Origin: an uncultured Gemmatimonadales bacterium | Lineage (GTDB): Bacteria > Gemmatimonadota > Gemmatimonadetes > Gemmatimonadales > GWC2-71-9 | DNA: 64,000 nt | Reading direction: 5' to 3' | Assembly (NCBI GenBank): GCA_963795085.1 | Contig: CAWCFX010000001.1 | Coordinates: 32,001-96,000 of the forward strand | In this document: positions 11,562-32,747 of the stretch, one piece after another | Layout of the letters: the number at the start of each line of letters is the position of its first letter | Position numbering within the stretch: the stretch's first letter is position 1 | Made by a program: the position numbers and the translations under genes | The notes under the pieces: generated by a model | Database searches by the model: none | What the model saw: only the letters and a program-made list of their open reading frames with translations | Told to the model about the DNA's origin: nothing

Positions 11562-12707
11562 CTAGAACAACCACCCTCCGTTCATCGTGAAGTTCCAGCC
11601 CTCGTCGCCCCTGGCGAGGTTGAAGGTAAAGATGGTGGACCGCAGGATCCGCATGGCGATGCCCCCGCCTCCGCCGACCTTCAGGTCGTCCGTGGTCAGC
11701 CGGAAAGCCTCCTGTTCGAACACCCGTCCCGCATCCACGAAGGCGACCGCGCTGATGGCGCCCAGGGTGGCGAGGTCCAGGATATTGTGGCGGATTTCCA
11801 GGTTGCCGAAGAGCACGCCTTCCCCGGTAAACCGGCCTTCATCGTAGGCGCGGTGGGTGTCGTCGCCGCCGAAGATGGTGATGGTGTTCTCCCACATGGG
11901 CAGTTCGAACCGGGCGTGCAGCGGAGGCCCGTCGGTCATGCCGGCTCCGCCGATTCGCGCCCCGATCACGGTTCCTTCACGCGGGGAGACAAATCCGCGA
12001 ATGGCGCCGTGCACCCGCCGGTAGCCGGTACCGCCGCTCCCCGCGGCGACGCCGGCTTCGGCGAAAATGCCCCGCGTCGTATTGAACTCGCTGTCCCGGG
12101 TGTCCAGAATCAGGGTGACCCGGCCGGTGACGTCATCGTCCTTTACCTCGCGGGCAAACTGGGAGCGAAACACCGATGGCCCCGGCAGGTCGCTCATCAG
12201 GCTCCGCTGGTACCCCACCGCCCCGCTGATGTGCAGCGGCCCGGTGATCCGCCGGGTGATCTCGCCGTTGACCAGCATGCGCTTCCGCCGCATCCGGTAA
12301 TAGAAAGGCTGGTTGTCGTTGACGCTGTCGGCATCGAACGTCGAGTTGTTGCCGATGCCGAAGAAGCCGAGCCGCGCTTCCCGCACCAGGGAGGCCGTGG
12401 CCGCCAGCCGCCAGCCGTCCTTGAGAGCCGGCACCCGCAGCAGCGCGGTGGCGAAGTAGCTGCTGTTGAGGCTGGCGCCCAGGTCGAGGCTCAGGTTGCC
12501 GAGGAAGGGGAACGGGGAGAGATAGTCGTCCACCGGCCGGGTCCATTGCAGCTTGACGGCGGCCATGGGAAAATCGTTGGCACCGCTGGTGATGTACGGG
12601 TAGCGGCTGTCCACCCATTCCTGGGCTTGCGCGCGGCCGGCGGTCGCCAGCAGGATCGCCGCCAGCGCCGTCGCCCGAATCCAGCGGTTGGCGGGAATGG
12701 CGCGCAT
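11562..12707 (-). CDS. Omp85/BamA-TamA family surface-antigen barrel without POTRA domains
   Basis: Signal peptide; DTRD, HRAYDEGRF, FVDAGRV, C-terminal aromatic residue (WLF). Confidence 0.8.
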   Translation of the reverse strand: MRAIPANRWIRATALAAILLATAGRAQAQEWVDSRYPYITSGANDFPMAAVKLQWTRPVDDYLSPFPFLGNLSLDLGASLNSSYFATALLRVPALKDGWRLAATASLVREARLGFFGIGNNSTFDADSVNDNQPFYYRMRRKRMLVNGEITRRITGPLHISGAVGYQRSLMSDLPGPSVFRSQFAREVKDDDVTGRVTLILDTRDSEFNTTRGIFAEAGVAAGSGGTGYRRVHGAIRGFVSPREGTVIGARIGGAGMTDGPPLHARFELPMWENTITIFGGDDTHRAYDEGRFTGEGVLFGNLEIRHNILDLATLGAISAVAFVDAGRVFEQEAFRLTTDDLKVGGGGGIAMRILRSTIFTFNLARGDEGWNFTMNGGWLF

Positions 12708-13747
12708 CAGCGGGGTCCCTGGTAGAGGTAGGCGGTGTCCGGGGAGGAGGCCCCGGTGCCGTCGTGCACCGCGTACTTGGACGGGAACATCGAGGCCGCC
12801 CCGTACTCGCCCCGCTTGTTGAGGGCATAGAAGGTCAGCTGGAAGCGGGGCTGCCCCCGTTCGTCGAGGAGCCGGGGCGGGGTCATGGCGACCACCCGCC
12901 GGCAGGTTTCCAGCGCGGCATCCGCCGGTTTCATCCCCCGCCGCATGTTCTCCACGGTCAGGAACCCGCCGCAGACCATGATGTTGGATTCGCCCCGTCC
13001 GGTCGAGCCGGCGGCGCCGATCTCGTTATCGGTGTACTGCCCGGCTCCGATAATCGGAGAATCTCCCACCCGTCCCGGGATTTTCCAGGCCAGGCCGCTG
13101 GTGGTGGTCACGGAGGAAATGTCGCCGGCGGCGTTGATCACGTTCAAGTTGATGGTCCCGGTGGGGCGGCCCACCACCATCGACTCATTCTCCGGGACGT
13201 TGAGATAGTCATCCTCCGCGCCCCGGTTGGCCCGCCACGTCAGCCAGGCCTGCCGGCTCTCCGGGGTCATCAGGTCCTCTTCCTTGAACCCGTAGGACAG
13301 GGCGAACCGCTTCGCCCCCTCGCCAACCAGCATGATGTGGTTAGTGTACTTGAGGACCAGCTTGGCGACCTCGCTCGGGGTCTTGATCCCTTCGAGCGAG
13401 CCCACCGCCCCCGCGCGCCGGGTCGGGCCGTGCATGCACGACGCGTCCAGCTGGACGATGCCCTCTTCGTTGGGGAGGCCGCCGTAGCCGACCGAGGAGT
13501 CGCCGGGATCGAGCTCCTGGATCTTGACGCCTGCCACGGCGGCATCGAGCGTGTCACTGCCCCCCACCACCAGTTCGACCGCCCGGGTCACCGGCGCCAG
13601 GCTGTTATTGGAGGAGATCGCCACCGGGCGGGCTGGCGGCCGCCTGATAACCGCCGGGGCCGCCAGCGCGGAGCCGGGCAGCGCCGCGGCGGCCACGAGC
13701 GCGCCGCTGGACTCGAGAAACCGCCGGCGGGAAACGGGATAGGGCAC
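12707..13747 (-). CDS. Tat-exported Ntn-hydrolase: isoaspartyl peptidase / L-asparaginase / glycosylasparaginase family
   Basis: SRRRFL Tat motif; SVGYGGLPN, LDASCMHG, TGTI autocleavage Thr, TTTSG, GRVGDSPIIGAG. Confidence 0.9.
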   Translation of the reverse strand: MPYPVSRRRFLESSGALVAAAALPGSALAAPAVIRRPPARPVAISSNNSLAPVTRAVELVVGGSDTLDAAVAGVKIQELDPGDSSVGYGGLPNEEGIVQLDASCMHGPTRRAGAVGSLEGIKTPSEVAKLVLKYTNHIMLVGEGAKRFALSYGFKEEDLMTPESRQAWLTWRANRGAEDDYLNVPENESMVVGRPTGTINLNVINAAGDISSVTTTSGLAWKIPGRVGDSPIIGAGQYTDNEIGAAGSTGRGESNIMVCGGFLTVENMRRGMKPADAALETCRRVVAMTPPRLLDERGQPRFQLTFYALNKRGEYGAASMFPSKYAVHDGTGASSPDTAYLYQGPR

Positions 13748-13794
13748 AGACACACTCCATGAGTTCGGGGGCTTGCCCAGCAAAATCGAATGGG

Positions 13795-13823
13795 ATAAAA
13801 GACGACTCTTCCAGCCCTGTCAA
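13795..13823 (-). promoter_or_regulatory. Putative sigma70 promoter for the asparaginase gene
   Basis: TTGACA-N17-TTTTAT on the minus strand. Confidence 0.45.
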
Positions 13824-13916
13824 CTATAGGCGCTGGGGATGGTCGAGGTGGTGGGCCGGATCACAGGGCCGGGCCCGGCGCTCGACTTTGCGCCAGCCCG
13901 GACCCGTGGCTCCGGA

Positions 13917-15275
13917 TCAGTAGCCCGGATTCTGCACGATATTGGGGGCCACGTCGATCTCCGAGAGTGGAATCGGATACAGCGTCTGGAAGGCGGGAAT
14001 GCCCAGTACCGTTTCCGCGACCCCGCGGCGGGTCAGGTCGGACCACCGGTCCCCTTCCATGGCCAGCTCGAGGAACCGCTGCCGGTCGATCTCGGCCAGC
14101 ACGTCGGCCTGGGTGGTTACCTCGACGCCCAGCGTGAGCGGCGCCAGCCCGGCCCGGACCCGGATCTTGTTCACTTCATCCAGGGCCGGCTGCAACTGGC
14201 TCATTCGCGCCAGCGCTTCCGCCTTGATCAGGAGCACCTCGGCAAAGCGGATGGCGTGAATATCTTCCCCTCCGGCGGTGGTGGGATACCGGGTGCCCCA
14301 GGCATCCGGCTCAGTCAGCGGCAGGAAGGAGCCGGTGATCGACCAGGTGAGCCGGGCGTCGGTCGAGGGATCGTAGGGGTCGACAAAGGCGTCGATCAGC
14401 TCCTGGCTGGGAGCCAGCTCACACCCGCCGCCGACGTCGCAGGAAATCCAGTAGTACATGTACTGGTACTGGATGTCGGTAAAGGTAACCTTGAAGATGT
14501 CCTCCGGCGTGTCCTGGCCGTCGGCATCGAACAGGTCGCTGAAACTGGCGGCCAGGTCGTAGCCCCGTGCGATCACCGCGTTCGCGCTGCTGTTCGCGTT
14601 GGCGTAGTCCTCGAGGAACAGATACACCCGGGCCTGCAAGGCATCGACGGCGCCCAGGGTGGCATGGTTCGCCGGCGCGGTGCTGGTCATCAGCGACCCG
14701 GCCTGCTGCAGGTCGCTCAGGATCTGGGCATAGGTCTCCGCCTCGGTGCTCCGGGCAATCTGGGAGGCCTCCTCCACGCTGGCCGCCGGCTCCAGCCGCA
14801 GCGGCACCCCGCCGAACACCTTCACCAGGTTGTGGTAGTGGAGCGCGCGGAGGAAGTACGCCTCGCCCAGGATCTGGTCCCGCTCGGCCGGGTCGAGCCC
14901 GGTGACCGAGGGGACCCGATCGATCAGGACGTTGGCCCGGTGAATCGCGGCATAGATCGACGCCCAGATGTCCTCGATCACCCCGTTGTTCGACAGCAGC
15001 TGGTTGGCATCGGCGTCGGCGTAGCTGTTGGAGGTGCCATCGTCGTCGTGGACCGAGTTGTCGGACGACAGGTCGCCGAAGAGATAGAAGTCACCGCCGT
15101 AGTAGCTGTCCTCCTGCAGCGCTGCATAGGCTCCCGCGAGCGCCGCGCGGGCGCCTTCCGGGGTCGTGATGGCAATATCCTCCGGCAGTTCGTCCACCGG
15201 GTTCTGGTCGAGGAGCGAGTCGCAGCCGGCCAGGGCAACGGCCAGCAGGAGCGCGGTCCCGGTCTTTTTCAGCAT
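13917..15275 (-). CDS. susD: RagB/SusD family nutrient-binding lipoprotein
   Basis: Lipobox LAGC; GEAYFLRALHYHNLV, IRFAEVLLIKAEA, ELAMEGDRWSDL, QNPGY C-terminus. Confidence 0.93.
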   Translation of the reverse strand: MLKKTGTALLLAVALAGCDSLLDQNPVDELPEDIAITTPEGARAALAGAYAALQEDSYYGGDFYLFGDLSSDNSVHDDDGTSNSYADADANQLLSNNGVIEDIWASIYAAIHRANVLIDRVPSVTGLDPAERDQILGEAYFLRALHYHNLVKVFGGVPLRLEPAASVEEASQIARSTEAETYAQILSDLQQAGSLMTSTAPANHATLGAVDALQARVYLFLEDYANANSSANAVIARGYDLAASFSDLFDADGQDTPEDIFKVTFTDIQYQYMYYWISCDVGGGCELAPSQELIDAFVDPYDPSTDARLTWSITGSFLPLTEPDAWGTRYPTTAGGEDIHAIRFAEVLLIKAEALARMSQLQPALDEVNKIRVRAGLAPLTLGVEVTTQADVLAEIDRQRFLELAMEGDRWSDLTRRGVAETVLGIPAFQTLYPIPLSEIDVAPNIVQNPGY

Positions 15276-15319
15276 GGGGAAGGTCCTCGCCACGGAATGA
15301 AAGAGTTGGCTGGTCATGG

Positions 15320-18300
15320 TTACCACCCCGCCTGGATGCCGAAGATCCACGTCCGGGCCAGCGGATAGGCATAGAAGTCGCTGCCGAGGGAGATGTTGGC
15401 CCCCGATCCGTTGCTGTTGAGGTCCGGGTCATAGCCGGTGTAATCAGAGCTGGTGATCAGGTTCCGGCCGGTGATGTACACCCGGGCCTGTTCGAAGCCG
15501 AGAATGCCGCCGATCCGCAGGGGAACATCGTAGCCCAGCGTGAGGTCCTGCAGCCGCCAGTAGGACGCATCCTCGACAAACCGGCTGGAGACTACCCGGG
15601 CGTTGGAGGTGCCGTCATAGCTGGCCCTGGGCACCTCGGTGACGTCGCCCGGCTGCTGCCAGCGGTCCATCTGGTCGGCGAACTGGTTGTCCTCGTAGTA
15701 GCCACCCGCTCCGCTGAAAATCCGCATGGCGTTGAAGATCTCCCCGCCCTGGCTGAAGGTGACGAAGACGCTGAGGTCGAAGCGGCCGTAGCTCAGGTTG
15801 TTGGTGAGCCCGCCGACATAGTCGGGATGGGGGCTGCCCACGATCTGCCGGTCGTCGGCGGTGATACTGCCGTCGCCGTCGGTGTCCTCGTAGATGGCAT
15901 CGCCGGTCTGGGGATCTACGCCCATGAACCGGAGCGCGTAAAAGGCGCCCAGCGGCTGGCCCACCTCGACCCGGTTGATGCTGCGAATGCCGGCCGTGAA
16001 CGGCTCGTCGTTGAAGAGCTTGGTGACCTCGTTCCGGTTGGCGGCCAGGTTGAGGGAAGTGGCCCACCGGAAGCCGCCGGGCCGCGACCGCTCGATGTTG
16101 ACGGTCTCCAGCTGAACCTCGAAGCCGTTGTTCTCCATGTTGCCCACGTTGTCGGTGATGCTGGAGAACCCGCTGGTGGTGGTAATCGGGCGGGCCAGCA
16201 GCATGTCCCGGGTCAGTTTCCGGTAGTAATCGATGCTGAACCCGATCCGGCCCCGGAACATCTCGGCGTCGAGGCCGACATTGAACTGCCGGGTGGACTC
16301 CCACTTGAGGTCCGGATTGGCCAGGTTGGCCGGGGCCAGGCCGCCCTCGCTGCCATAGTTGGAAGTGAAGAAGGTGCCCTGCCAGGAGTAGTTGCCGATC
16401 TCCTGGTTGCCGGTGAGCCCCAGGCTGGTCCGGATCTTCAGGTGCTCGAAGGTGCTCGAACCGGCCATGAACGATTCTTCGCTCAGGACCCAGCCTGCCG
16501 AGGCCGCGGGGAAGACGCCCCACTTGTTGTTGGCGCCGAACCGGGACGACCCATCGCCCCGGAGGCTGGCGCCCAGCAGGTACTTTCCGCGGAGAGCGTA
16601 ATTGGCCCGTCCGAAAAACGAGATCAGGTTGCTTTCGTTCCGGGACCCGTCGAACGTCACCGGGGTGGTGGCGTTGCGGACCTGGGTAAACCGGTCGTTG
16701 GTAAGTCCTTCCCCGCGGATAAAGTTCAGCTCTCCCCGGTTGAGTTCCAGCGCTCCGCCCCCTGTCACCTGGAAACTCTGTCGCTCGCCCAGGCCCGGGG
16801 TGTACGTGAGGAAGCTCTCCATCACGTACCGGTTCGCGTTGGAGTAGGCGCTCTTGGCGATGCCGTTGGCGCTCTGGGCATAGGTGCCCTCCACCCGGGG
16901 GCTTTCGTACTGGGACTCCCGCAGGTTGAGCAGGTCAACCCCGCCGCGAGCGGTGAACAGCAGCCCGTGCCGCATGTTCCACCGGGCCTCCGCATTACCG
17001 ACAATCCGGAGGGTACGGGCCTGGGCCGTATTGAGGCTGGCCAGCGCCACGCTATTGGGGTACTGGAGCCCGTCGGTGAGACCGCTGAACTCGCCGTCCG
17101 GCCGCCGGACGGCCACCAGCGGCTGGTTCCCCACCACGTTGGTAATAATGCCGGTCGAGCTGCCGTCGTTTTCGATCCGGTCGTTGACCTCTCCGGAAAT
17201 GCCCAGCGACGTGCTCAGCGAAAACCGGTCGATCGACCCGAAATCCAGGTTCGCCCGCCCCGACGCACGCCGGTAGGCCGACCCGATCACGATGCCGTTC
17301 TGGTCGAAATAGCTGCCCGAGAGCCGGTAGCGCATCCGCTCGTCACCGCCGGTCAGGCCCAGCTCGGTGTTGCTGAGCGGCGCCCGCCGCAGCACGGCGT
17401 CCTGCCAGTCGGTGTTGATCTGGTCATCCACGCCCGCCACCCCGAAGTAGTCGGAGCCGTAGCCGTCGTTCTCCGCGGCTTCGTTGAAATACTCGAGATA
17501 CTGCGCCGAGTTCAGCAGGTCGAGCCGCTTGGATACCGCCTGGGTCCCGATGTAGCTGCTGATCGTCGCCCGGGTCCGGCCGGCGACTCCGCGCTTGGTG
17601 GTGATCAGCACCACGCCGTTGGATCCCCGGGAGCCGTAGATCGCCGCGCCCGCCGCGTCCTTGAGGATGTCGATCGAGGCGATGTCGTTGGCACTCAGCC
17701 CGGTTACCCCGGTAATGCTCTGGCCCCCCATGTCGAGCTGGGCCAGCGCCTCGGACGTCATCGGAATGCCGTCCACGACATACAGCGGCTGGTTGCTGGC
17801 CAGCACCGAGGCGGAGCCCCGGATCCGCACCGTCAGGCCGTTGCCCGGGTTGCCGGCGTTCTGCACCACGGTAACGCCGGCCGCGTTCCCCATCAGGCCC
17901 GCGTCGGGACTGGCCGCCGACGGATCGAGTTGCTCGCCCCCGACCGAACTGACCGCGTTGGCGAGATCGGCACGCCGCATGGTGCCGTAGCCGACCACGA
18001 CCAGGTCATCCAGCCGCACGACCCGATGCTGGAGCCGGAAATCCGCGACGGCTTCCTGGGTCGCCGACACAGTGATCTCCCGCTCGGAGGCCAGGTAGCC
18101 CACCATTCGCACTCGCAGCGCCTGGGTCCCGGCCGGGACGCCGGTGAGAGCATAGGTGCCACTGGAGCGGGTAATCGTGCGGATGTCCGTGCCGACGACC
18201 GAAATCTCGGCACCGTCGATGGGCACGCCGCCGGCCGAGTCGGTAATGGTTCCGCGTACCGTACCGGTCTGCGCGAAGGCGGGTTGGGCCAGGACCGGCA

Positions 18301-18346
18301 GGGCTCCCAGCAACAGCAGGAACAGCAGCAAACGTCGGATGGTCAT
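15320..18346 (-). CDS. susC: SusC/RagA TonB-dependent outer-membrane transporter
   Basis: VVVGYG, IRG..S, QPLYVVDG, ILKDAAGAAIYGSRGSNGVVLITTKRG, NPDLKWE, YPLART; GGAGG RBS. Confidence 0.95.
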   Translation of the reverse strand: MTIRRLLLFLLLLGALPVLAQPAFAQTGTVRGTITDSAGGVPIDGAEISVVGTDIRTITRSSGTYALTGVPAGTQALRVRMVGYLASEREITVSATQEAVADFRLQHRVVRLDDLVVVGYGTMRRADLANAVSSVGGEQLDPSAASPDAGLMGNAAGVTVVQNAGNPGNGLTVRIRGSASVLASNQPLYVVDGIPMTSEALAQLDMGGQSITGVTGLSANDIASIDILKDAAGAAIYGSRGSNGVVLITTKRGVAGRTRATISSYIGTQAVSKRLDLLNSAQYLEYFNEAAENDGYGSDYFGVAGVDDQINTDWQDAVLRRAPLSNTELGLTGGDERMRYRLSGSYFDQNGIVIGSAYRRASGRANLDFGSIDRFSLSTSLGISGEVNDRIENDGSSTGIITNVVGNQPLVAVRRPDGEFSGLTDGLQYPNSVALASLNTAQARTLRIVGNAEARWNMRHGLLFTARGGVDLLNLRESQYESPRVEGTYAQSANGIAKSAYSNANRYVMESFLTYTPGLGERQSFQVTGGGALELNRGELNFIRGEGLTNDRFTQVRNATTPVTFDGSRNESNLISFFGRANYALRGKYLLGASLRGDGSSRFGANNKWGVFPAASAGWVLSEESFMAGSSTFEHLKIRTSLGLTGNQEIGNYSWQGTFFTSNYGSEGGLAPANLANPDLKWESTRQFNVGLDAEMFRGRIGFSIDYYRKLTRDMLLARPITTTSGFSSITDNVGNMENNGFEVQLETVNIERSRPGGFRWATSLNLAANRNEVTKLFNDEPFTAGIRSINRVEVGQPLGAFYALRFMGVDPQTGDAIYEDTDGDGSITADDRQIVGSPHPDYVGGLTNNLSYGRFDLSVFVTFSQGGEIFNAMRIFSGAGGYYEDNQFADQMDRWQQPGDVTEVPRASYDGTSNARVVSSRFVEDASYWRLQDLTLGYDVPLRIGGILGFEQARVYITGRNLITSSDYTGYDPDLNSNGSGANISLGSDFYAYPLARTWIFGIQAGW

Positions 18347-18383
18347 GAGATGCCTCCGGAGGGTGTACGGCATGCCGTGATCG

Positions 18384-19292
18384 TCATGGTGAATCGGTGG
18401 GTGAGGGAAGACGGGCCCGGCCGCGGGCCGGATCGAACCGGCTGCCGGGAGGGAGGACATGGGTGACCAGGCCGGAAACACCGAGCAGGGTCTGGTCCGG
18501 TGGAGTGATACGGGCCTGCCTGGCATCGTAGATGACCACCGATCCGAGGCCGACCACCAGCCAGGTGCCATCGGGGCCGACTTCCAGGGCGGTGCTTTCG
18601 TCAATGCCGACGCCCAGCAGGCCGGGGCGTTCCAGGACCACGCTCAACAGCCGGTTGTGGCGCTCCCGGGCGATGAAATGCTGGTCCACGACCGTGCCAG
18701 GAAGGAATCCGAACCCTGGAGCGATCTCGATGCTTGCCCGGGTGATGCTGGAGAAGGTGTCGCCGTAGTAACCACTGGTATCCGGGGGAGAACGGAGCTG
18801 GTTCCCGGTGATCATGGAGTCCGACATGATGGCGGCGCCCGCAGAGGTTCCGCCGACTACCGCTCCAGCCCGGTAGCGGGCCCGAATGGCACGAAGGACG
18901 GGCGTGCCCTGCAGGACCGCGGTGAGGCGGGCCTGGTCGCCGCCGGTAAACCAGATGCCGGTCGCCCCGGCCACCAGGGCTTCCGCCTGCTCCTGCAGCG
19001 CCTCCTCGCGGGTCACCAGGAGGACCGTGGCGGTCGCACCCAGCGCCTCCAGGTCGGCGGCCTTCTCGCGGCCCGCCTCCAGCGGTGCTCCGCTGGCCAG
19101 CGGCACCACCACGATGCGGGCCGATCCGGCGCCTCCGGCCAGCTGGACGAATCGGCTCACCATGGCCGGCGTTTGTCCGCCGCCGCCCACGATGAACAGG
19201 GAACCCTGGCCGGCTCCCTGGAATGAAAGCGCCGTGGCCGACAGCAGCAGGGTGGTAACGATCACGAGGGTCCCCCTGGCGCACGATGCCAC
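18384..19292 (-). CDS. cphB: Secreted cyanophycinase (peptidase S51)
   Basis: IVGGG, FTGGDQ, GGTSAGA (Ser), DQHF (His), RERHNRL, GIDESTA (Glu); hydrophobic N-terminus; alternative GTG start at 19265 overlaps the IclR stop. Confidence 0.9.
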   Translation of the reverse strand: MASCARGTLVIVTTLLLSATALSFQGAGQGSLFIVGGGGQTPAMVSRFVQLAGGAGSARIVVVPLASGAPLEAGREKAADLEALGATATVLLVTREEALQEQAEALVAGATGIWFTGGDQARLTAVLQGTPVLRAIRARYRAGAVVGGTSAGAAIMSDSMITGNQLRSPPDTSGYYGDTFSSITRASIEIAPGFGFLPGTVVDQHFIARERHNRLLSVVLERPGLLGVGIDESTALEVGPDGTWLVVGLGSVVIYDARQARITPPDQTLLGVSGLVTHVLPPGSRFDPARGRARLPSPTDSP

Positions 19293-20062
19293 CCGGCGCC
19301 CAGGCTCCGGGACACCCGCCCGGCTGCCTCGCCGAGCAGCCGGGCCATGCGGGTTATCGCCTCGGGGCCGAACCGGGCGGCGGGGCCGCCCACGCTCATG
19401 GCCGCGATCACCTGCGCCTCGTGGTTCCGAACCGCCGCGCCCAGCGCCACGTACCCCATCTCCAGCTCTTCGATCGCCGTGGCGTACCCGCGCTCAAGCA
19501 CCGCGGCCAGCTCGGTGCCCAGCCGGGCCTGGCTGGTGATGGTATTCGGCGTGAGCCGGGCCAGCCTGAATCCGGCGGGCCGCTCGGGGCCGAGCGCGGC
19601 CAGGAGGACCTTCCCGGTGGAAGTGGCGTGGGCCGGCCAGCGGCTCCCCACGATGGGCGCCGGGCTGAGCTTGTGCCGGCCCTGGACCTCGTCGAGCACC
19701 AGTACGTCGGTGCCGGCGAGGATCTCGAGGCTGGTGGTTTCCCCGGTCACCCGGGCCAGCTCGACCAGCTCGGCATGCGCGACCCGCTGGAGCGTGTTCG
19801 TTCGCTGCGCCAGCGATCCCAGTTCAATGGCCCTCGGCCCCAGGTGGAAAGTCCCGGTGGTGCGGTTGCGGACCACCAGCCCCTCGCGCTCCAGGGCGGT
19901 CAGGATCCGGAGCGCGGTGCTCCGGGTAAGCGAGACCGAGCGGGCGACATCGGCCAGCGCCCACTCGGGCGCCGCGTCGCTGAAGACGCGCAGGATGCCA
20001 AACGCCCGGGTGAGCGCTTGAGTGCCCTGCTGGGGTCGAGACAATGTGGCACGGATGTTCAC
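19262..20062 (-). CDS. IclR family transcriptional regulator
   Basis: N-terminal HTH; PAHATSTGKVLLA, TPNTIT, RGYA..EE motifs. Confidence 0.93.
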   Translation of the reverse strand: MNIRATLSRPQQGTQALTRAFGILRVFSDAAPEWALADVARSVSLTRSTALRILTALEREGLVVRNRTTGTFHLGPRAIELGSLAQRTNTLQRVAHAELVELARVTGETTSLEILAGTDVLVLDEVQGRHKLSPAPIVGSRWPAHATSTGKVLLAALGPERPAGFRLARLTPNTITSQARLGTELAAVLERGYATAIEELEMGYVALGAAVRNHEAQVIAAMSVGGPAARFGPEAITRMARLLGEAAGRVSRSLGAGWHRAPGGPS

Positions 20063-20071
20063 TATATGGAT
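20057..20071. promoter_or_regulatory. Candidate IclR operator (imperfect palindrome)
   Basis: gttcactatatggat at the IclR start; TTGACG -35 at 20095-20100 on the minus strand. Confidence 0.45.
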
Positions 20072-20139
20072 AATGTCGGGCTCGACAGAGATGCCGTCAA
20101 GACCCTAAGTTCCGGAGCCTCTTATCTTTTCCGGTACCG

Positions 20140-20796
20140 ATGCCGCGAATCTTCTTCTGGGATGCCGACACCCAGCACGACTTCATGCACGCCGACGGCC
20201 GGCTCTACGTCCCCGGCAGCCAGGAGATCATCCCCGCGCTGGCCGGCCTGACCCGGTACGCGCACGACCGCGGCATCCGGATCATCGCGACCGCCGAGGA
20301 TCATCTGGCGGGCCACCGGGAACTGAGCGATCAGCCCGACTACGTGGAGACCTTTCCTCCCCACTGCATGCGGGGCACCCCGGGACAGGCCAGGATCCCG
20401 GAGACGGCGCTGCGGAACCCGCTGGTCCTGGAACCCGAGATCAGCGCCGCCGCGGCCGCCGACCGGGCGCCCGGCCACGACGGCGACCTCCTGTTCCACA
20501 AGCACTGGTTTGATCCCTTCACTAATCCTCACCTGCTGCCGGTTCTGCGGGCGCTCGATCCCGACGTGATCGTGATGTACGGCGTGGCCCAGGACACGAG
20601 CGCCCGGCATGCGGTGGAGGGCCTCGCCCGCCACCGGCCGCACACCCGCCTGTATTTCGTGGTGGATGCCTCCCGCGCCCTGCGGCCGGAGGTCGGAGAG
20701 CACCTGCTCAAGGAGTGGGCGGAAGAGGGCGTCCGGCTGGTTCGGGCCGCCGAGATCCTCGAGGATGGTATCCTGGGCCGGTACCTGGATGCCTGA
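20140..20796 (+). CDS. Isochorismatase / nicotinamidase-like cysteine hydrolase family protein
   Basis: DTQHDF, GRLYVPG, EDH, FPPHC, FHK; nucleophile position reads GVAQDTS. Confidence 0.85.
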   Translation: MPRIFFWDADTQHDFMHADGRLYVPGSQEIIPALAGLTRYAHDRGIRIIATAEDHLAGHRELSDQPDYVETFPPHCMRGTPGQARIPETALRNPLVLEPEISAAAAADRAPGHDGDLLFHKHWFDPFTNPHLLPVLRALDPDVIVMYGVAQDTSARHAVEGLARHRPHTRLYFVVDASRALRPEVGEHLLKEWAEEGVRLVRAAEILEDGILGRYLDA

Positions 20797-21844
20797 ACCG
20801 GCCATCCGCGGCTTTCTCCCCGATATCGCCGATGATGCCGGGCCTGCCGGTGTGCCACGGGCCGAGCCCCTCGCGCTGCAGGCCCTGCTGCGAGACCTCT
20901 TTCGGACCACCCGCCCGGTAGCGCTGGTGCCCGCCTCCTCCGGGGGCATGATGGAAGCCGCTATCCGAAACGGCGTCCAGGAGCGGGTCCTGGTAGTGAT
21001 CGGCGGAGAAGACGGCGCCCGCTTCGCCGGCGTAGCGGAGTCCTGCGGCAAGGACGTAGTCCGGGCCATGGTGCCGCCGGGACGGACCCTGGAAGCCGAG
21101 CACCTGGCCCAGTTTCTCGACGGGCCCGAAGTGGACGCGGTCGCGCTGGTGCATGCGGAGACCTCAACTGGCGCGCTGGCCCCGCTGAGCGACTTGGCGC
21201 GGGTGGTGCACGCCCGGAAGGACGTTCACCTCCTGGTAGATACCACAGGCTCCCTTGGGGCCTCTCCGGTGGAGACCGACGGGTGGCAGCTCGACTTCGC
21301 CTTTTCATCGTCCGAGAAGGGCCTGGCCCTGCCACCCGGACTCGGGCTGGGCGTTGCCAGCAGCCGGCTGCTCGCCCGGGCGGCGAACCTCCCCGGCCGG
21401 GGCCGCTACTTTGACCTCGTTCGCCTCTCCCAGGCGGCTGGCGAAACCGGGTTTCCCGAGATCCTGCCCCACACGGACGCGCTGGCCGCCCGGCTGGAAC
21501 AGATCCGGGCCAGCGGAGGCTTGGAGGCCCGCTGGAAGCGCCACCACGAGATGCTCAACCTGGTCGAGGAGTGGGTTCTGCTCCGACCCCCGTTCCAGCT
21601 GCTCGCGCCGGAGGGCCGGCGATCGTGGTCGGTGTCGTGCCTGCGGCTCCCGCCGGGGCTGGTGGGCGACGAAGTCGTGCAGGCCATGCGGGCAAAAGGG
21701 TGGCGCATCGGGACGGGATGGGGGGATTTGCGGATCTCAACCCTCCGAATCGGCCACATGGGAGAAGCCACACCGGCTGACCTCAGCCATCTCCTGAGCG
21801 ACCTGGGTGAGGTCACGGCCGCGAAACTCGCGCCCAGTATGTGA
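20789..21844 (+). CDS. Class V PLP-dependent aminotransferase (serine/alanine-glyoxylate-like)
   Basis: VHAETSTG, LLVD, SSEKGLALPPG, LRIGHMG; N-terminus looks shortened. Confidence 0.85.
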   Translation: MPEPAIRGFLPDIADDAGPAGVPRAEPLALQALLRDLFRTTRPVALVPASSGGMMEAAIRNGVQERVLVVIGGEDGARFAGVAESCGKDVVRAMVPPGRTLEAEHLAQFLDGPEVDAVALVHAETSTGALAPLSDLARVVHARKDVHLLVDTTGSLGASPVETDGWQLDFAFSSSEKGLALPPGLGLGVASSRLLARAANLPGRGRYFDLVRLSQAAGETGFPEILPHTDALAARLEQIRASGGLEARWKRHHEMLNLVEEWVLLRPPFQLLAPEGRRSWSVSCLRLPPGLVGDEVVQAMRAKGWRIGTGWGDLRISTLRIGHMGEATPADLSHLLSDLGEVTAAKLAPSM

Positions 21845-31754: not shown

Positions 31755-32747
31755 TTACCATCGGATCGCCGCACTCCCCCACATGAACCCGCTCCCAAAG
31801 GCGGTGACCACCAGCAGATCCCCGGGTTCCAGCCGCCCGGCCTTGACGCATTCATCGAGGGCAATCGGTATCGTGGCCGCGGTCGTGTTGCCGTAGTACA
31901 TGATGTTATTGAAGACCTGGTCGTCCCGCAGCTGCAGGCTCTTCTGGACGCCTTCCGCGATGCGGAGGTTGGCCTGGTGCGCGACCAGGAGCCTGATGTC
32001 CGGGGGCGAATGACCGATGGCCGCGAGTACGGCCCGGACCGATTCGGGCATCCGGGTGACCGCGTGGCGAAAGACCTCCCGTCCGTCCATCTGCAGGAAA
32101 TACCGTCCTTCCTTCAGGTGCTCCTGCGATACCCGTGGGTGATACATCGAACCGGGGCCGTCCACCCAGAGCAACTCGGCCTGGTCTCCGTCGCTGTGCA
32201 GGTCGAAGGCGAGGATGCCGCGCTCCAGGTCGGCGCTGGGGCCCAGCACCGCGGCACCGGCTCCGTCGGCAAAGATGACCGCGGTGTTGCGCCCCCGGGT
32301 ACTCACATCCATGCCGGTGGACTGGACTTCGGCGCCGATCACCAGGACGTGGCGGTACTGTCCGCTCCGGATCCACCCGTCCGCCACCGACAGCCCGTAG
32401 ACGAAACCGCTGCACTGGGTCCGGATGTCCAGCGCGGGGATGGGACCGGCGCCCAGGGCGCGCTGCACGTACACGCCTCCGCCGGGAATGAAGTGGTCGG
32501 GGGTGCTGGTGGCATAGATGAGGGCGTCGATATCACCCGGATCGAGCCCGGCGGCCGCGACGGCCTTGCGGGACGCGGCGAGCGCCAGGCTCACCCCGGT
32601 TTCCCCCTCCCGGACCCAGCGCCTCTCCTGGATGCCGGTTCGGGTGCGGATCCACTCGTCGGAGGTGTCCATCACCCGCGCCAGCTCATCATTGGTCACC
32701 ACCCGGTCGGGCACCTGGAAACCGGTGCCGAGAATCATGCTGCGCAT
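31755..32747 (-). CDS. fabH: 3-oxoacyl-ACP synthase III family
   Basis: DTSDEWIRTRTGI, QCSGF (Cys), HQAN, GNT, AFGSG. Confidence 0.93.
   Translation of the reverse strand: MRSMILGTGFQVPDRVVTNDELARVMDTSDEWIRTRTGIQERRWVREGETGVSLALAASRKAVAAAGLDPGDIDALIYATSTPDHFIPGGGVYVQRALGAGPIPALDIRTQCSGFVYGLSVADGWIRSGQYRHVLVIGAEVQSTGMDVSTRGRNTAVIFADGAGAAVLGPSADLERGILAFDLHSDGDQAELLWVDGPGSMYHPRVSQEHLKEGRYFLQMDGREVFRHAVTRMPESVRAVLAAIGHSPPDIRLLVAHQANLRIAEGVQKSLQLRDDQVFNNIMYYGNTTAATIPIALDECVKAGRLEPGDLLVVTAFGSGFMWGSAAIRW

Follow-up and report, generated by a model that had tools for sequence, protein, structure and literature searches.

Cyanophycin is usually treated as a cyanobacterial reserve, and RagAB of Porphyromonas gingivalis is a SusCD-type importer of ordinary oligopeptides made by gingipains. 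The closest described system is the "cyanophycin utilization locus", which, according to passages of PMC10206079, was proposed by Ben Hania et al. in 2017 for the Bacteroidetes Salinivirga cyanobacteriivorans and comprises genes for cyanophycinase as well as iadA and a transporter. Passages of PMC3235067 describe CphE, an extracellular cyanophycinase of about 45 kDa from Pseudomonas anguilliseptica and P. alcaligenes, and list residues of CphB that are critical for activity around Ser132 (Gln101, Asp172, Gln173, Arg178, Arg180 and Arg183). Here we describe a cassette in an uncultured Gemmatimonadales bacterium that joins an exported cyanophycinase of family S51 to a SusC/SusD pair. It lies in a window of 64,000 nt, the whole stretch that we analysed (positions 32,001 to 96,000 of contig CAWCFX010000001.1, assembly GCA_963795085.1), where six minus-strand genes between 11562 and 20062 encode an IclR regulator, the S51 enzyme, SusC, SusD, an Ntn hydrolase and an Omp85-like barrel. 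A first-pass annotation had read all six as a single utilisation locus for cyanophycin. We find that the conserved unit is IclR-S51-SusC-SusD (13917-20062), not all six genes.

The four-gene cassette and its conservation

Pfam and NCBIfam scans agree with the six co-oriented genes and with the domains that the first-pass annotation had given them, including a signal-bearing cyanophycinase with an intact Ser-His-Glu triad and a SusC/SusD pair. The S51 gene (PF03575, 18384-19292, minus strand) scores 186.5 bits against the cyanophycinase model TIGR02069, whose cut-off is 126.6, and 186.7 bits in a genome-wide search; against the PepE model (PRK05282) it reaches only 27.4 bits. The longer start gives a protein of 302 aa, and an alternative start at 19265 gives the 293-aa form found in databases. 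Its closest solved relatives are the cyanophycinases 7uqv and 3en0, and alignment to both places the triad at Ser150 (GTSAGA), His205 (DQHF) and Glu232 (GIDE) in the 302-aa numbering. All six of the CphB pocket residues are kept as well in the alignment to 3en0 (Gln120, Asp203, Gln204, Arg209, Arg211 and Arg214), and neither the triad nor these six residues vary among 28 aligned homologues. The S51 protein is a cyanophycinase on all the sequence tests that we had at our disposal. Its N-terminus resembles a signal peptide and has no lipobox. Judged by eye, 80 of 80 N-termini among S51 relatives are hydrophobic, and some of them have a Cys in the lipobox position.

The SusC gene (15320-18346, minus strand) encodes a SusC/RagA-type TonB-dependent outer-membrane transporter, with 748.5 bits against TIGR04056 (cut-off 368.25) and 58.7 bits against the TIGR04057 signature (cut-off 46.2); it has a CarboxypepD_reg domain, a plug (PF07715) and a barrel (PF00593). 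Its open frame extends to 18604, and the start that yields a signal peptide, MTIRRLLLF..., is at 18346. The start codon of SusD follows 44 nt past the SusC stop. SusD (13917-15275, minus strand), a SusD/RagB-type surface lipoprotein and the final gene of the cassette, matches PF14322 (102 bits) and PF07980 (101 bits); it starts MLKKTGTALLLAVALAGC, with a lipobox LAGC recognised by eye, and the database gene call is the identical 452-aa form. Among the 120 SusD homologues listed, all those with a source name come from Gemmatimonadota. The first gene of the cassette (19262-20062, minus strand) encodes an IclR-family transcriptional regulator (PF09339 and PF01614) that reaches no NCBIfam equivalog cut-off. 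Upstream of it, promoter-like hexamers seen by eye (TTGACG, 19 nt, CATTAT; 20070-20100, minus strand) lie 7 nt from its GTG start; the consensus promoter scan did not report them, and we treat them as a lead only. The six genes and the scanned neighbours of related cassettes showed no domain of a glycoside hydrolase, lyase or esterase. The locus thus has the SusCD pair of a polysaccharide utilization locus in the strict sense and lacks the carbohydrate-active enzymes that complete one.

We took 80 S51 loci from species-representative genomes, the best 80 of 588 relatives found, and sought neighbours in them by tblastn with the window proteins. SusC and SusD adjoin S51 in 24 of the 80 loci, or 23 of the 76 whose downstream flank is at least 1.5 kb long, at 42-58% identity; SusC homologues directly after S51 in related loci are 45-59% identical to that of the window. 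Of the 24 SusCD-linked loci, 18 also have an IclR homologue, upstream of S51, and in two of the 24 S51 is divergent from IclR-SusC-SusD. The Ntn and Omp85 proteins match none of the 80 loci. The first-pass annotation had proposed a search for S51, SusC/D and an asparaginase-2 enzyme occurring together; the SusC/D part of that combination recurs, and the asparaginase-2 part does not.

We read the genes that follow SusD with a gene picker based on GC3, which is crude and left 3 of 13 linked loci unreadable. In 8 of the 10 readable loci the gene after SusD is on the other strand (these genes encode beta-lactamase fold, MsrA, M20 and Rce1-like proteins), and in the other two an M14 carboxypeptidase-domain protein or a histidine kinase follows.

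Additional linked loci came from the phylum at large. We took another 12 loci around TIGR02069 hits of low score in genomes of the phylum; six of the 12 are SusCD-linked, four in the family of the window (G198, G122, G351 and G398) and two in a sister family (G228 and G283), and none of the six has Ntn or Omp85 nearby. Among 401 sampled Gemmatimonadota genomes, TIGR02069 is exceeded in 209 and 42 have a SusD orthologue (E<=1e-80). In at least 19 of the 401, including the genome of the window, S51 and a SusD orthologue are no more than about 6 kb apart, a count that compares the listed positions among 150 of 293 cyanophycinase matches. These tallies, and those for Ntn and cphA given below, include the unpublished genomes G057, G182 and G157, and no single claim rests on these. 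In a quick IQ-TREE phylogeny of S51 with 97 rows, at least one pair of which is the same genome fetched twice, the window falls in a clade of 37 rows, of which 29 are linked to SusCD, 5 are unlinked and 3 are undecidable. The SusCD-link label changes 8 times on this tree, compared with a mean of 27.5 when labels are shuffled, and none of 500 shuffles was as low.

Several loci contain neighbours that we record for their own sake. In a number of Gemmatimonadales genomes (L012, L019, L023, L025 and L086) a divergent FAD-dependent oxidoreductase gene (PF01266) lies upstream of the cassette, and the alpha subunit of a Rieske ring-hydroxylating oxygenase recurs a few genes downstream. In L017, the gene directly after SusD (15457-18165), on the same strand, encodes a protein of 902 aa with a Peptidase_M14 domain. 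CphZ dipeptidases belong to the M14 family, according to passages of PMC9974463, and the L017 protein might be a second step encoded by the locus itself; its match is to PF00246, not to the AstE/AspA type. In four loci from metagenome-assembled genomes of Acidobacteriota (L055, L058, L061 and L069), an exported S51 homologue adjoins a barrel with CarboxypepD_reg and OMP_b-brl_4 domains and a sulfatase-TPR fusion, and L058 also has an amino-acid permease; the barrel may be a different outer-membrane partner for the same S51 enzyme.

The Ntn-Omp85 pair beside the cassette

The two remaining genes have a history of their own. The Ntn gene (12707-13783, minus strand) encodes an Asparaginase_2 enzyme (PF01112, 187.4 bits) with a Tat motif, SRRRFLE, that scores 22.1 bits against PF10518, just below the cut-off of 22.7. 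The Tat-exported asparaginase-2 enzyme of the first-pass annotation is borne out as to family and motif and falls just short by the Tat model. Its assignment to the IaaA type does not hold: the beta-aspartyl-peptidase model for IaaA/EcAIII (PRK10226) requires 567 bits and the protein reaches 103.5. By comparison, it matches the Flavobacterium glycosylasparaginase over its full length at 203 bits, and the human and E. coli isoaspartyl peptidases at about 97-101 bits. Its Thr210 lines up with the nucleophile of the Flavobacterium enzyme, and it retains the motifs GRVGDSP and STGRGE. The processing motif, in contrast, is Thr-Gly-Thr or a close variant, not His-Asp-Thr, in 21 of 21 sequences. In 21 of 21 aligned orthologues, Trp11 of glycosylasparaginase is replaced by a gap and Phe13 by Asn, Ser or Gly; we take these two aromatic residues to be sugar-stacking, for which a literature search turned up no confirming paper. 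Because the enzyme scores 203 bits against the glycosylasparaginase group, yet has an altered processing motif and altered aromatic positions, we assign it to a distinct branch of that group.

The last gene (11562-12707, minus strand) encodes an Omp85-family barrel of 381 aa with a signal peptide. PF01103 is the sole domain found (33.5 bits, cut-off 24), the Pfam scan found no POTRA family, and NF047779 gives 102.7 bits where 200 are needed. The Atlas clusters nearest to it contain Omp85 proteins from Gemmatimonadota, 372-393 aa long, and no solved relative was found by sequence at E<=0.1. In the window the stop codon of Ntn overlaps the ATG of the barrel gene as TGATG.

We examined stretches of 17 kb around 20 Ntn orthologues (L090-L109). 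The Omp85-like gene comes directly after Ntn in 17 of these 20 relatives. Their flanks are the window's own: o757, MCP, a class-V aminotransferase and an isochorismatase-like gene on one side, and thioredoxin-like and TetR genes on the other. IclR, S51, SusC and SusD match none of the 20 loci. Instead, the slot between the isochorismatase-like gene and Ntn measures 1-4 kb in the relatives and is variable, holding an M28 peptidase, a protein with a QRPTase_N domain or one of 221 aa that belongs to no family. In the window, an isochorismatase-family gene (PF00857, 20140-20796, plus strand) stands at the far side of this slot. The distribution of Ntn is also much broader than that of the cassette: orthologues (E<=1e-60) are present in 277 of the 401 genomes and in 138 of the 165 from the window's family, including genomes such as G001, G004 and G007, in which no hit to cyanophycinase reaches E<=1e-30.

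A TTGAC hexamer, in most cases in the form AAGTTGACA with TAAATCCC about 17-19 nt further on, lies upstream of Ntn in 16 of the 20 relatives, where there is no cassette. The window keeps such a motif, TAGTTGACA ... TTTATCCC (13792-13823, minus strand), and its TTGACA hexamer at 13823-13818 is the promoter candidate to which the first-pass annotation had already drawn attention. The motif is downstream of a GC-rich hairpin without a T tract (13856-13915, minus strand) that sits directly 3' of the SusD stop codon. The 101-nt stretch containing this hairpin has a folding energy of -47.4 kcal/mol (z -2.21 relative to shuffles), which is matched by 5 of 200 shuffles, so that the hairpin is weak evidence for the end of an operon. 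A generic scan of the region for promoters and terminators was at the level of shuffled sequence, with 1 promoter-like site (1.1 expected) and 3 terminator-like sites (3.5 expected). We looked for scars of a mobile element at the borders of the cassette and rejected the candidates: there were only short direct and inverted repeats at chance level, none of them flanking the cassette, and no clear jump in composition (the G+C content of the window is 66-70%).

The cassette has been inserted into a variable slot between the isochorismatase/aminotransferase operon and the Ntn-Omp85 pair. Because the relatives share these flanks without the cassette, and because the motif is kept, Ntn and Omp85 are the older pair, with a promoter-like signal of their own, and became neighbours of the cassette through one insertion. 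We accordingly rejected the six-gene operon as the conserved unit: Ntn and Omp85 appear in none of the 80 S51 loci, the cassette appears in none of the 20 Ntn loci of the relatives, and the pair has its own motif. The first-pass annotation had itself named lack of conservation and separate regulation as grounds for doubt, and these apply to Ntn and Omp85 only. Separating the pair from the cassette keeps a wrong pathway annotation from spreading.

As for what the pair does, there is about an even chance that it is a separate system, unrelated to cyanophycin, that either salvages N-linked glycans or asparagine derivatives or displays the hydrolase at the surface by way of the barrel. The best solved relatives of Ntn are by far the glycosylasparaginases, the two genes are kept together and overlap in the window, and their distribution is independent of cyanophycinase. 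However, the change from His-Asp-Thr and the lost Trp and Phe positions count against this reading, as does the lack of any glycosidase or other glycan-related gene alongside the pair in the loci read. The barrel might serve as a channel, or it might be the partner through which the Ntn enzyme is exported.

Three further observations concern the region of the junction. A 195-nt contig from public read run X1 covers 19980-20174, across the boundary of IclR and isochorismatase, with 4 differences; public reads therefore include a near-identical strain in which the border of the cassette is the same. A 236-nt read contig covers 13834-14064, at the end of SusD. Runs X1-X4 gave short, low-depth pieces only, and no read contig listed from them spans SusD to Ntn. 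For positions 12700-20100, a look for RNA runs gave none. Beyond the border, the probable start of ORF 20609-21844 is near 20900, since its relatives match only about the last 76%, and a 315-aa minus-strand ORF (20122-21069) that belongs to no family and overlaps both the isochorismatase gene and ORF 20609-21844 is probably spurious.

Substrate, pathway and alternative explanations

In the source genome (3.89 Mb, 6 contigs, 93% complete) the S51 gene is the only cyanophycinase. The synthetase gene cphA, which the first-pass annotation had noted as missing from the window, is not found there, nor is it above cut-off in the genome (best 62 bits, 850 required), and the same is true of iadA (best 32.9 bits, 331 required). 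PF04952, the marker for CphZ of the AstE/AspA type, is present neither in this genome nor in five other cassette-bearing genomes, the catalytic-domain family not having been searched separately. Those five genomes all have cphA; iadA is above cut-off in four and just under it in one (306 bits), and four have the Ntn family. In G198, G122, G351 and G398, iadA is directly beside cyanophycinase and cphA, and the cyanophycinase beside iadA in G198 is signal-less. Two such clusters, L122 (G198:C1:1415000-1431000) and L123 (G122:C3:2638000-2654000), consist of iadA, cyanophycinase, cphA1 and a second gene, with a Mur ligase only, that resembles cphA2. The whole iadA-cyanophycinase-cphA cluster of the relatives is absent from the window's genome, which looks like a pure consumer of cyanophycin. 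In the phylum as a whole, cphA is above cut-off in 104 of the 401 sampled genomes, and in 63 of the 165 from the window's family.

We hold, with moderate confidence, that the four genes are a probably self-regulated operon with which the cell most likely harvests cyanophycin that other cells release, or its soluble fragments, and that this cassette was inserted beside a separate Ntn-Omp85 pair. Gene content, conservation, the insertion, and the catalytic and pocket residues are direct observations; from them we infer the substrate, the direction of flow and the regulation. The S51 enzyme, exported by the Sec route, would cleave beta-Asp-Arg units off the polymer. The lipoprotein SusD and the barrel SusC, driven by TonB, would take up either the substrate or its products and carry them through the outer membrane, and IclR would switch the operon. 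With its plain signal peptide and no lipobox, S51 may act either before or after passage through SusC. Scavenging is the sensible reading because the genome lacks a synthetase. The first-pass idea of a scavenging pathway with the layout of a polysaccharide utilization locus outside Bacteroidota thus survives for S51, SusCD and IclR, which are recurrently linked, in a genome without synthetase; it does not extend to Ntn and Omp85.

Several points weigh against this explanation. First, of the 18 other genomes that have a linked cassette, 13 also carry the synthetase gene, and turnover of the cell's own polymer, or that of its kin, is inseparable from scavenging there. Second, the pathway is incomplete as encoded, the conserved cassette having neither a dipeptidase nor an inner-membrane transporter. 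Cyanophycinase is described as an exo-enzyme (passages of PMC10206079), the polymer is large, and the cassette encodes no surface endo-enzyme that would make pieces to fit SusC. Third, the support for the key clade of the S51 tree is only 80 by the Shimodaira-Hasegawa-like approximate likelihood-ratio test (SH-aLRT), the tree contains near-duplicate rows, and close S51 relatives in Longimicrobium are without SusCD. Fourth, the transporter is often found without S51. Of 26 further SusCD loci (SusD identity 41-57%), 2 are linked, 4 run into a contig end and 20 are without S51 within reach, and two genomes, G147 (L130) and G272 (L131), hold IclR-SusC-SusD without it. The neighbours of such S51-less pairs are heterogeneous, encoding gamma-glutamyltranspeptidase, Met-zincin, beta-lactamase fold proteins, sulfatase and kinases. 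Because homologues so often lack S51 and have such varied neighbours, the SusCD transporter family as a whole is not cyanophycin-specific.

The same 20 loci led us to reject the SusD orthologue as a proxy for the cassette. We also noted that a close S51 (61% identity) lies on a different contig of G147, and that in L131 a fusion of PD40 and gamma-glutamyltranspeptidase lies two genes past SusD, after a class-V aminotransferase gene.

A second explanation would keep the six genes together in this one genome: the periplasmic Ntn enzyme would have been recruited as the beta-Asp-Arg dipeptidase, and its adjacency to the cassette would be functional. We consider this unlikely, although it has the genome's own inventory in its favour. 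Ntn is the only PF01112 gene there, and because no cphA, iadA or CphZ-type gene was found, it is the only candidate of a known type for splitting beta-Asp-Arg, a reaction that it may possibly carry out in this genome. By contrast, four of the five other cassette-bearing genomes have an iadA above cut-off, which in G198, G122, G351 and G398 is next to cytoplasmic cphB and cphA. The Tat motif would put Ntn in the periplasm, the compartment into which SusC delivers. A low activity as beta-aspartyl dipeptidases can be shown by glycosylasparaginases (Noronkoski 1998, as cited in passages of PMC10206079). The orthogroup of Ntn has a Gly-Thr scissile bond as in IaaA-type enzymes, and it has lost the two aromatic residues that we presume to stack against sugar. 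Against this, the adjacency occurs in this genome only, with no instance in the 80 S51 loci or the 20 Ntn loci, and orthologues of Ntn are near-universal in the family, also where no cyanophycinase is detected. Ntn keeps its own conserved promoter-like motif behind the hairpin and scores far below the beta-aspartyl-peptidase threshold; furthermore, at 93% completeness the missing iadA is not proven absent.

A broader form of the same idea, which we regard as improbable, is that the glycosylasparaginase-like Ntn hydrolases of Gemmatimonadota would be periplasmic beta-aspartyl (beta-Asp-Arg) dipeptidases, a fourth family for the last step of cyanophycin degradation after IadA, IaaA and CphZ, joined to the cassette here. 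If that were true, a family physically joined to a SusCD-cyanophycinase cassette would give a complete periplasmic pathway in a genome lacking the other three.

Another unlikely alternative is that the cassette is a RagAB-like unit for the import of peptides in general or of other beta-aspartyl compounds, with S51 cutting small imported peptides in the periplasm and cyanophycin not the natural substrate; SusCD homologues with varied peptidase-like neighbours or none, an S51 family that includes the aspartyl dipeptidase PepE and other non-cyanophycin enzymes (some act on microcin C-type compounds, according to parts of 10.1101/2022.03.27.485901), the weak PRK05282 match, a plain signal peptide compatible with a periplasmic location and the long end branch (0.56) of the window's S51 all lend it something, but it is doubtful given that all six CphB residues critical for activity and pocket formation are kept, that the score is far above the cyanophycinase equivalog cut-off and low for PepE, and that the frequency of cphA in the phylum means that the polymer should be available in these communities.

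Comparison with known systems

The operon for cyanophycin harvest that we favour resembles RagAB in having a SusC/SusD pair for a peptide-type rather than a glycan substrate, and in a locus free of carbohydrate-active enzymes. It differs in belonging to another phylum and in its partner enzyme, a predicted exopeptidase specific for beta-peptides, where RagAB is served by oligopeptides from gingipains.

As an enzyme, S51 is like CphE and like CphB of Synechocystis (3en0) in its Ser-His-Glu triad and in the Gln, Asp, Arg, Arg and Arg of the pocket, and it has a Sec-type leader as CphE does. It keeps Gln204, the counterpart of Gln173 in CphB, where CphE has Thr, and it is about 300 aa long. An operon with SusCD is not reported for CphE in the passages of PMC3235067.

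The Ntn enzyme compares in a similar way with the Flavobacterium (Elizabethkingia) glycosylasparaginase (1p4k, 9gaf and 2gaw). The two are alike over their full length, are both exported, share the nucleophile Thr and have the GRVGDSPIIGAG and TG.GE motifs; Ntn differs in its Thr-Gly-Thr motif, in the altered Trp11 and Phe13 positions, in its Tat leader and in the Omp85-like neighbour of most of its relatives.

Pairs of SusC and SusD in metagenome-assembled genomes of Gemmatimonadota have already been reported, in the portion of bioRxiv 10.1101/2022.08.12.503676 that we cite. We found no description of this cassette in literature on Gemmatimonadota with cyanophycinase or SusC/SusD, as represented by titles, the beginnings of abstracts and passages of PMC8880816. 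The frequency of cphA in the phylum, taken with a recurring exported cyanophycinase linked to SusCD, suggests that, in soils and sediments, cyanophycin is traded as a source of nitrogen and carbon, and that the actors in this trade are producers, recyclers and pure scavengers such as the present genome. The cassette also extends the idea of a SusCD utilisation locus for a polyamide beyond Bacteroidota, with a different type of regulator. Its four genes form a compact unit that is directly testable, and, as far as the passages and abstracts of the literature cited here show, experiments on a cyanophycin utilisation locus have yet to be reported.

The closest comparison remains the Salinivirga locus, as described in passages of PMC10206079. 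In both, cyanophycinase and a transporter are clustered in a scavenger rather than a maker of the polymer, and both are predictions from a genome without biochemical proof. The window thus has what defines such a locus, namely a cyanophycinase and a transporter in a genome without cphA; the isoaspartyl dipeptidase (iadA or iaaA) of the definition is not inside it, Ntn not being IaaA by model. Unlike the Salinivirga locus, whose description names iadA, the cassette belongs to Gemmatimonadota and consists of four genes, with a single S51 enzyme and an IclR regulator and with no dipeptidase or inner-membrane permease, and most of its linked relatives, again unlike Salinivirga as described, also make cyanophycin. 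What is new here is a form of the cyanophycin utilisation locus idea that is found in a different phylum and is minimal, headed by IclR and dipeptidase-less.

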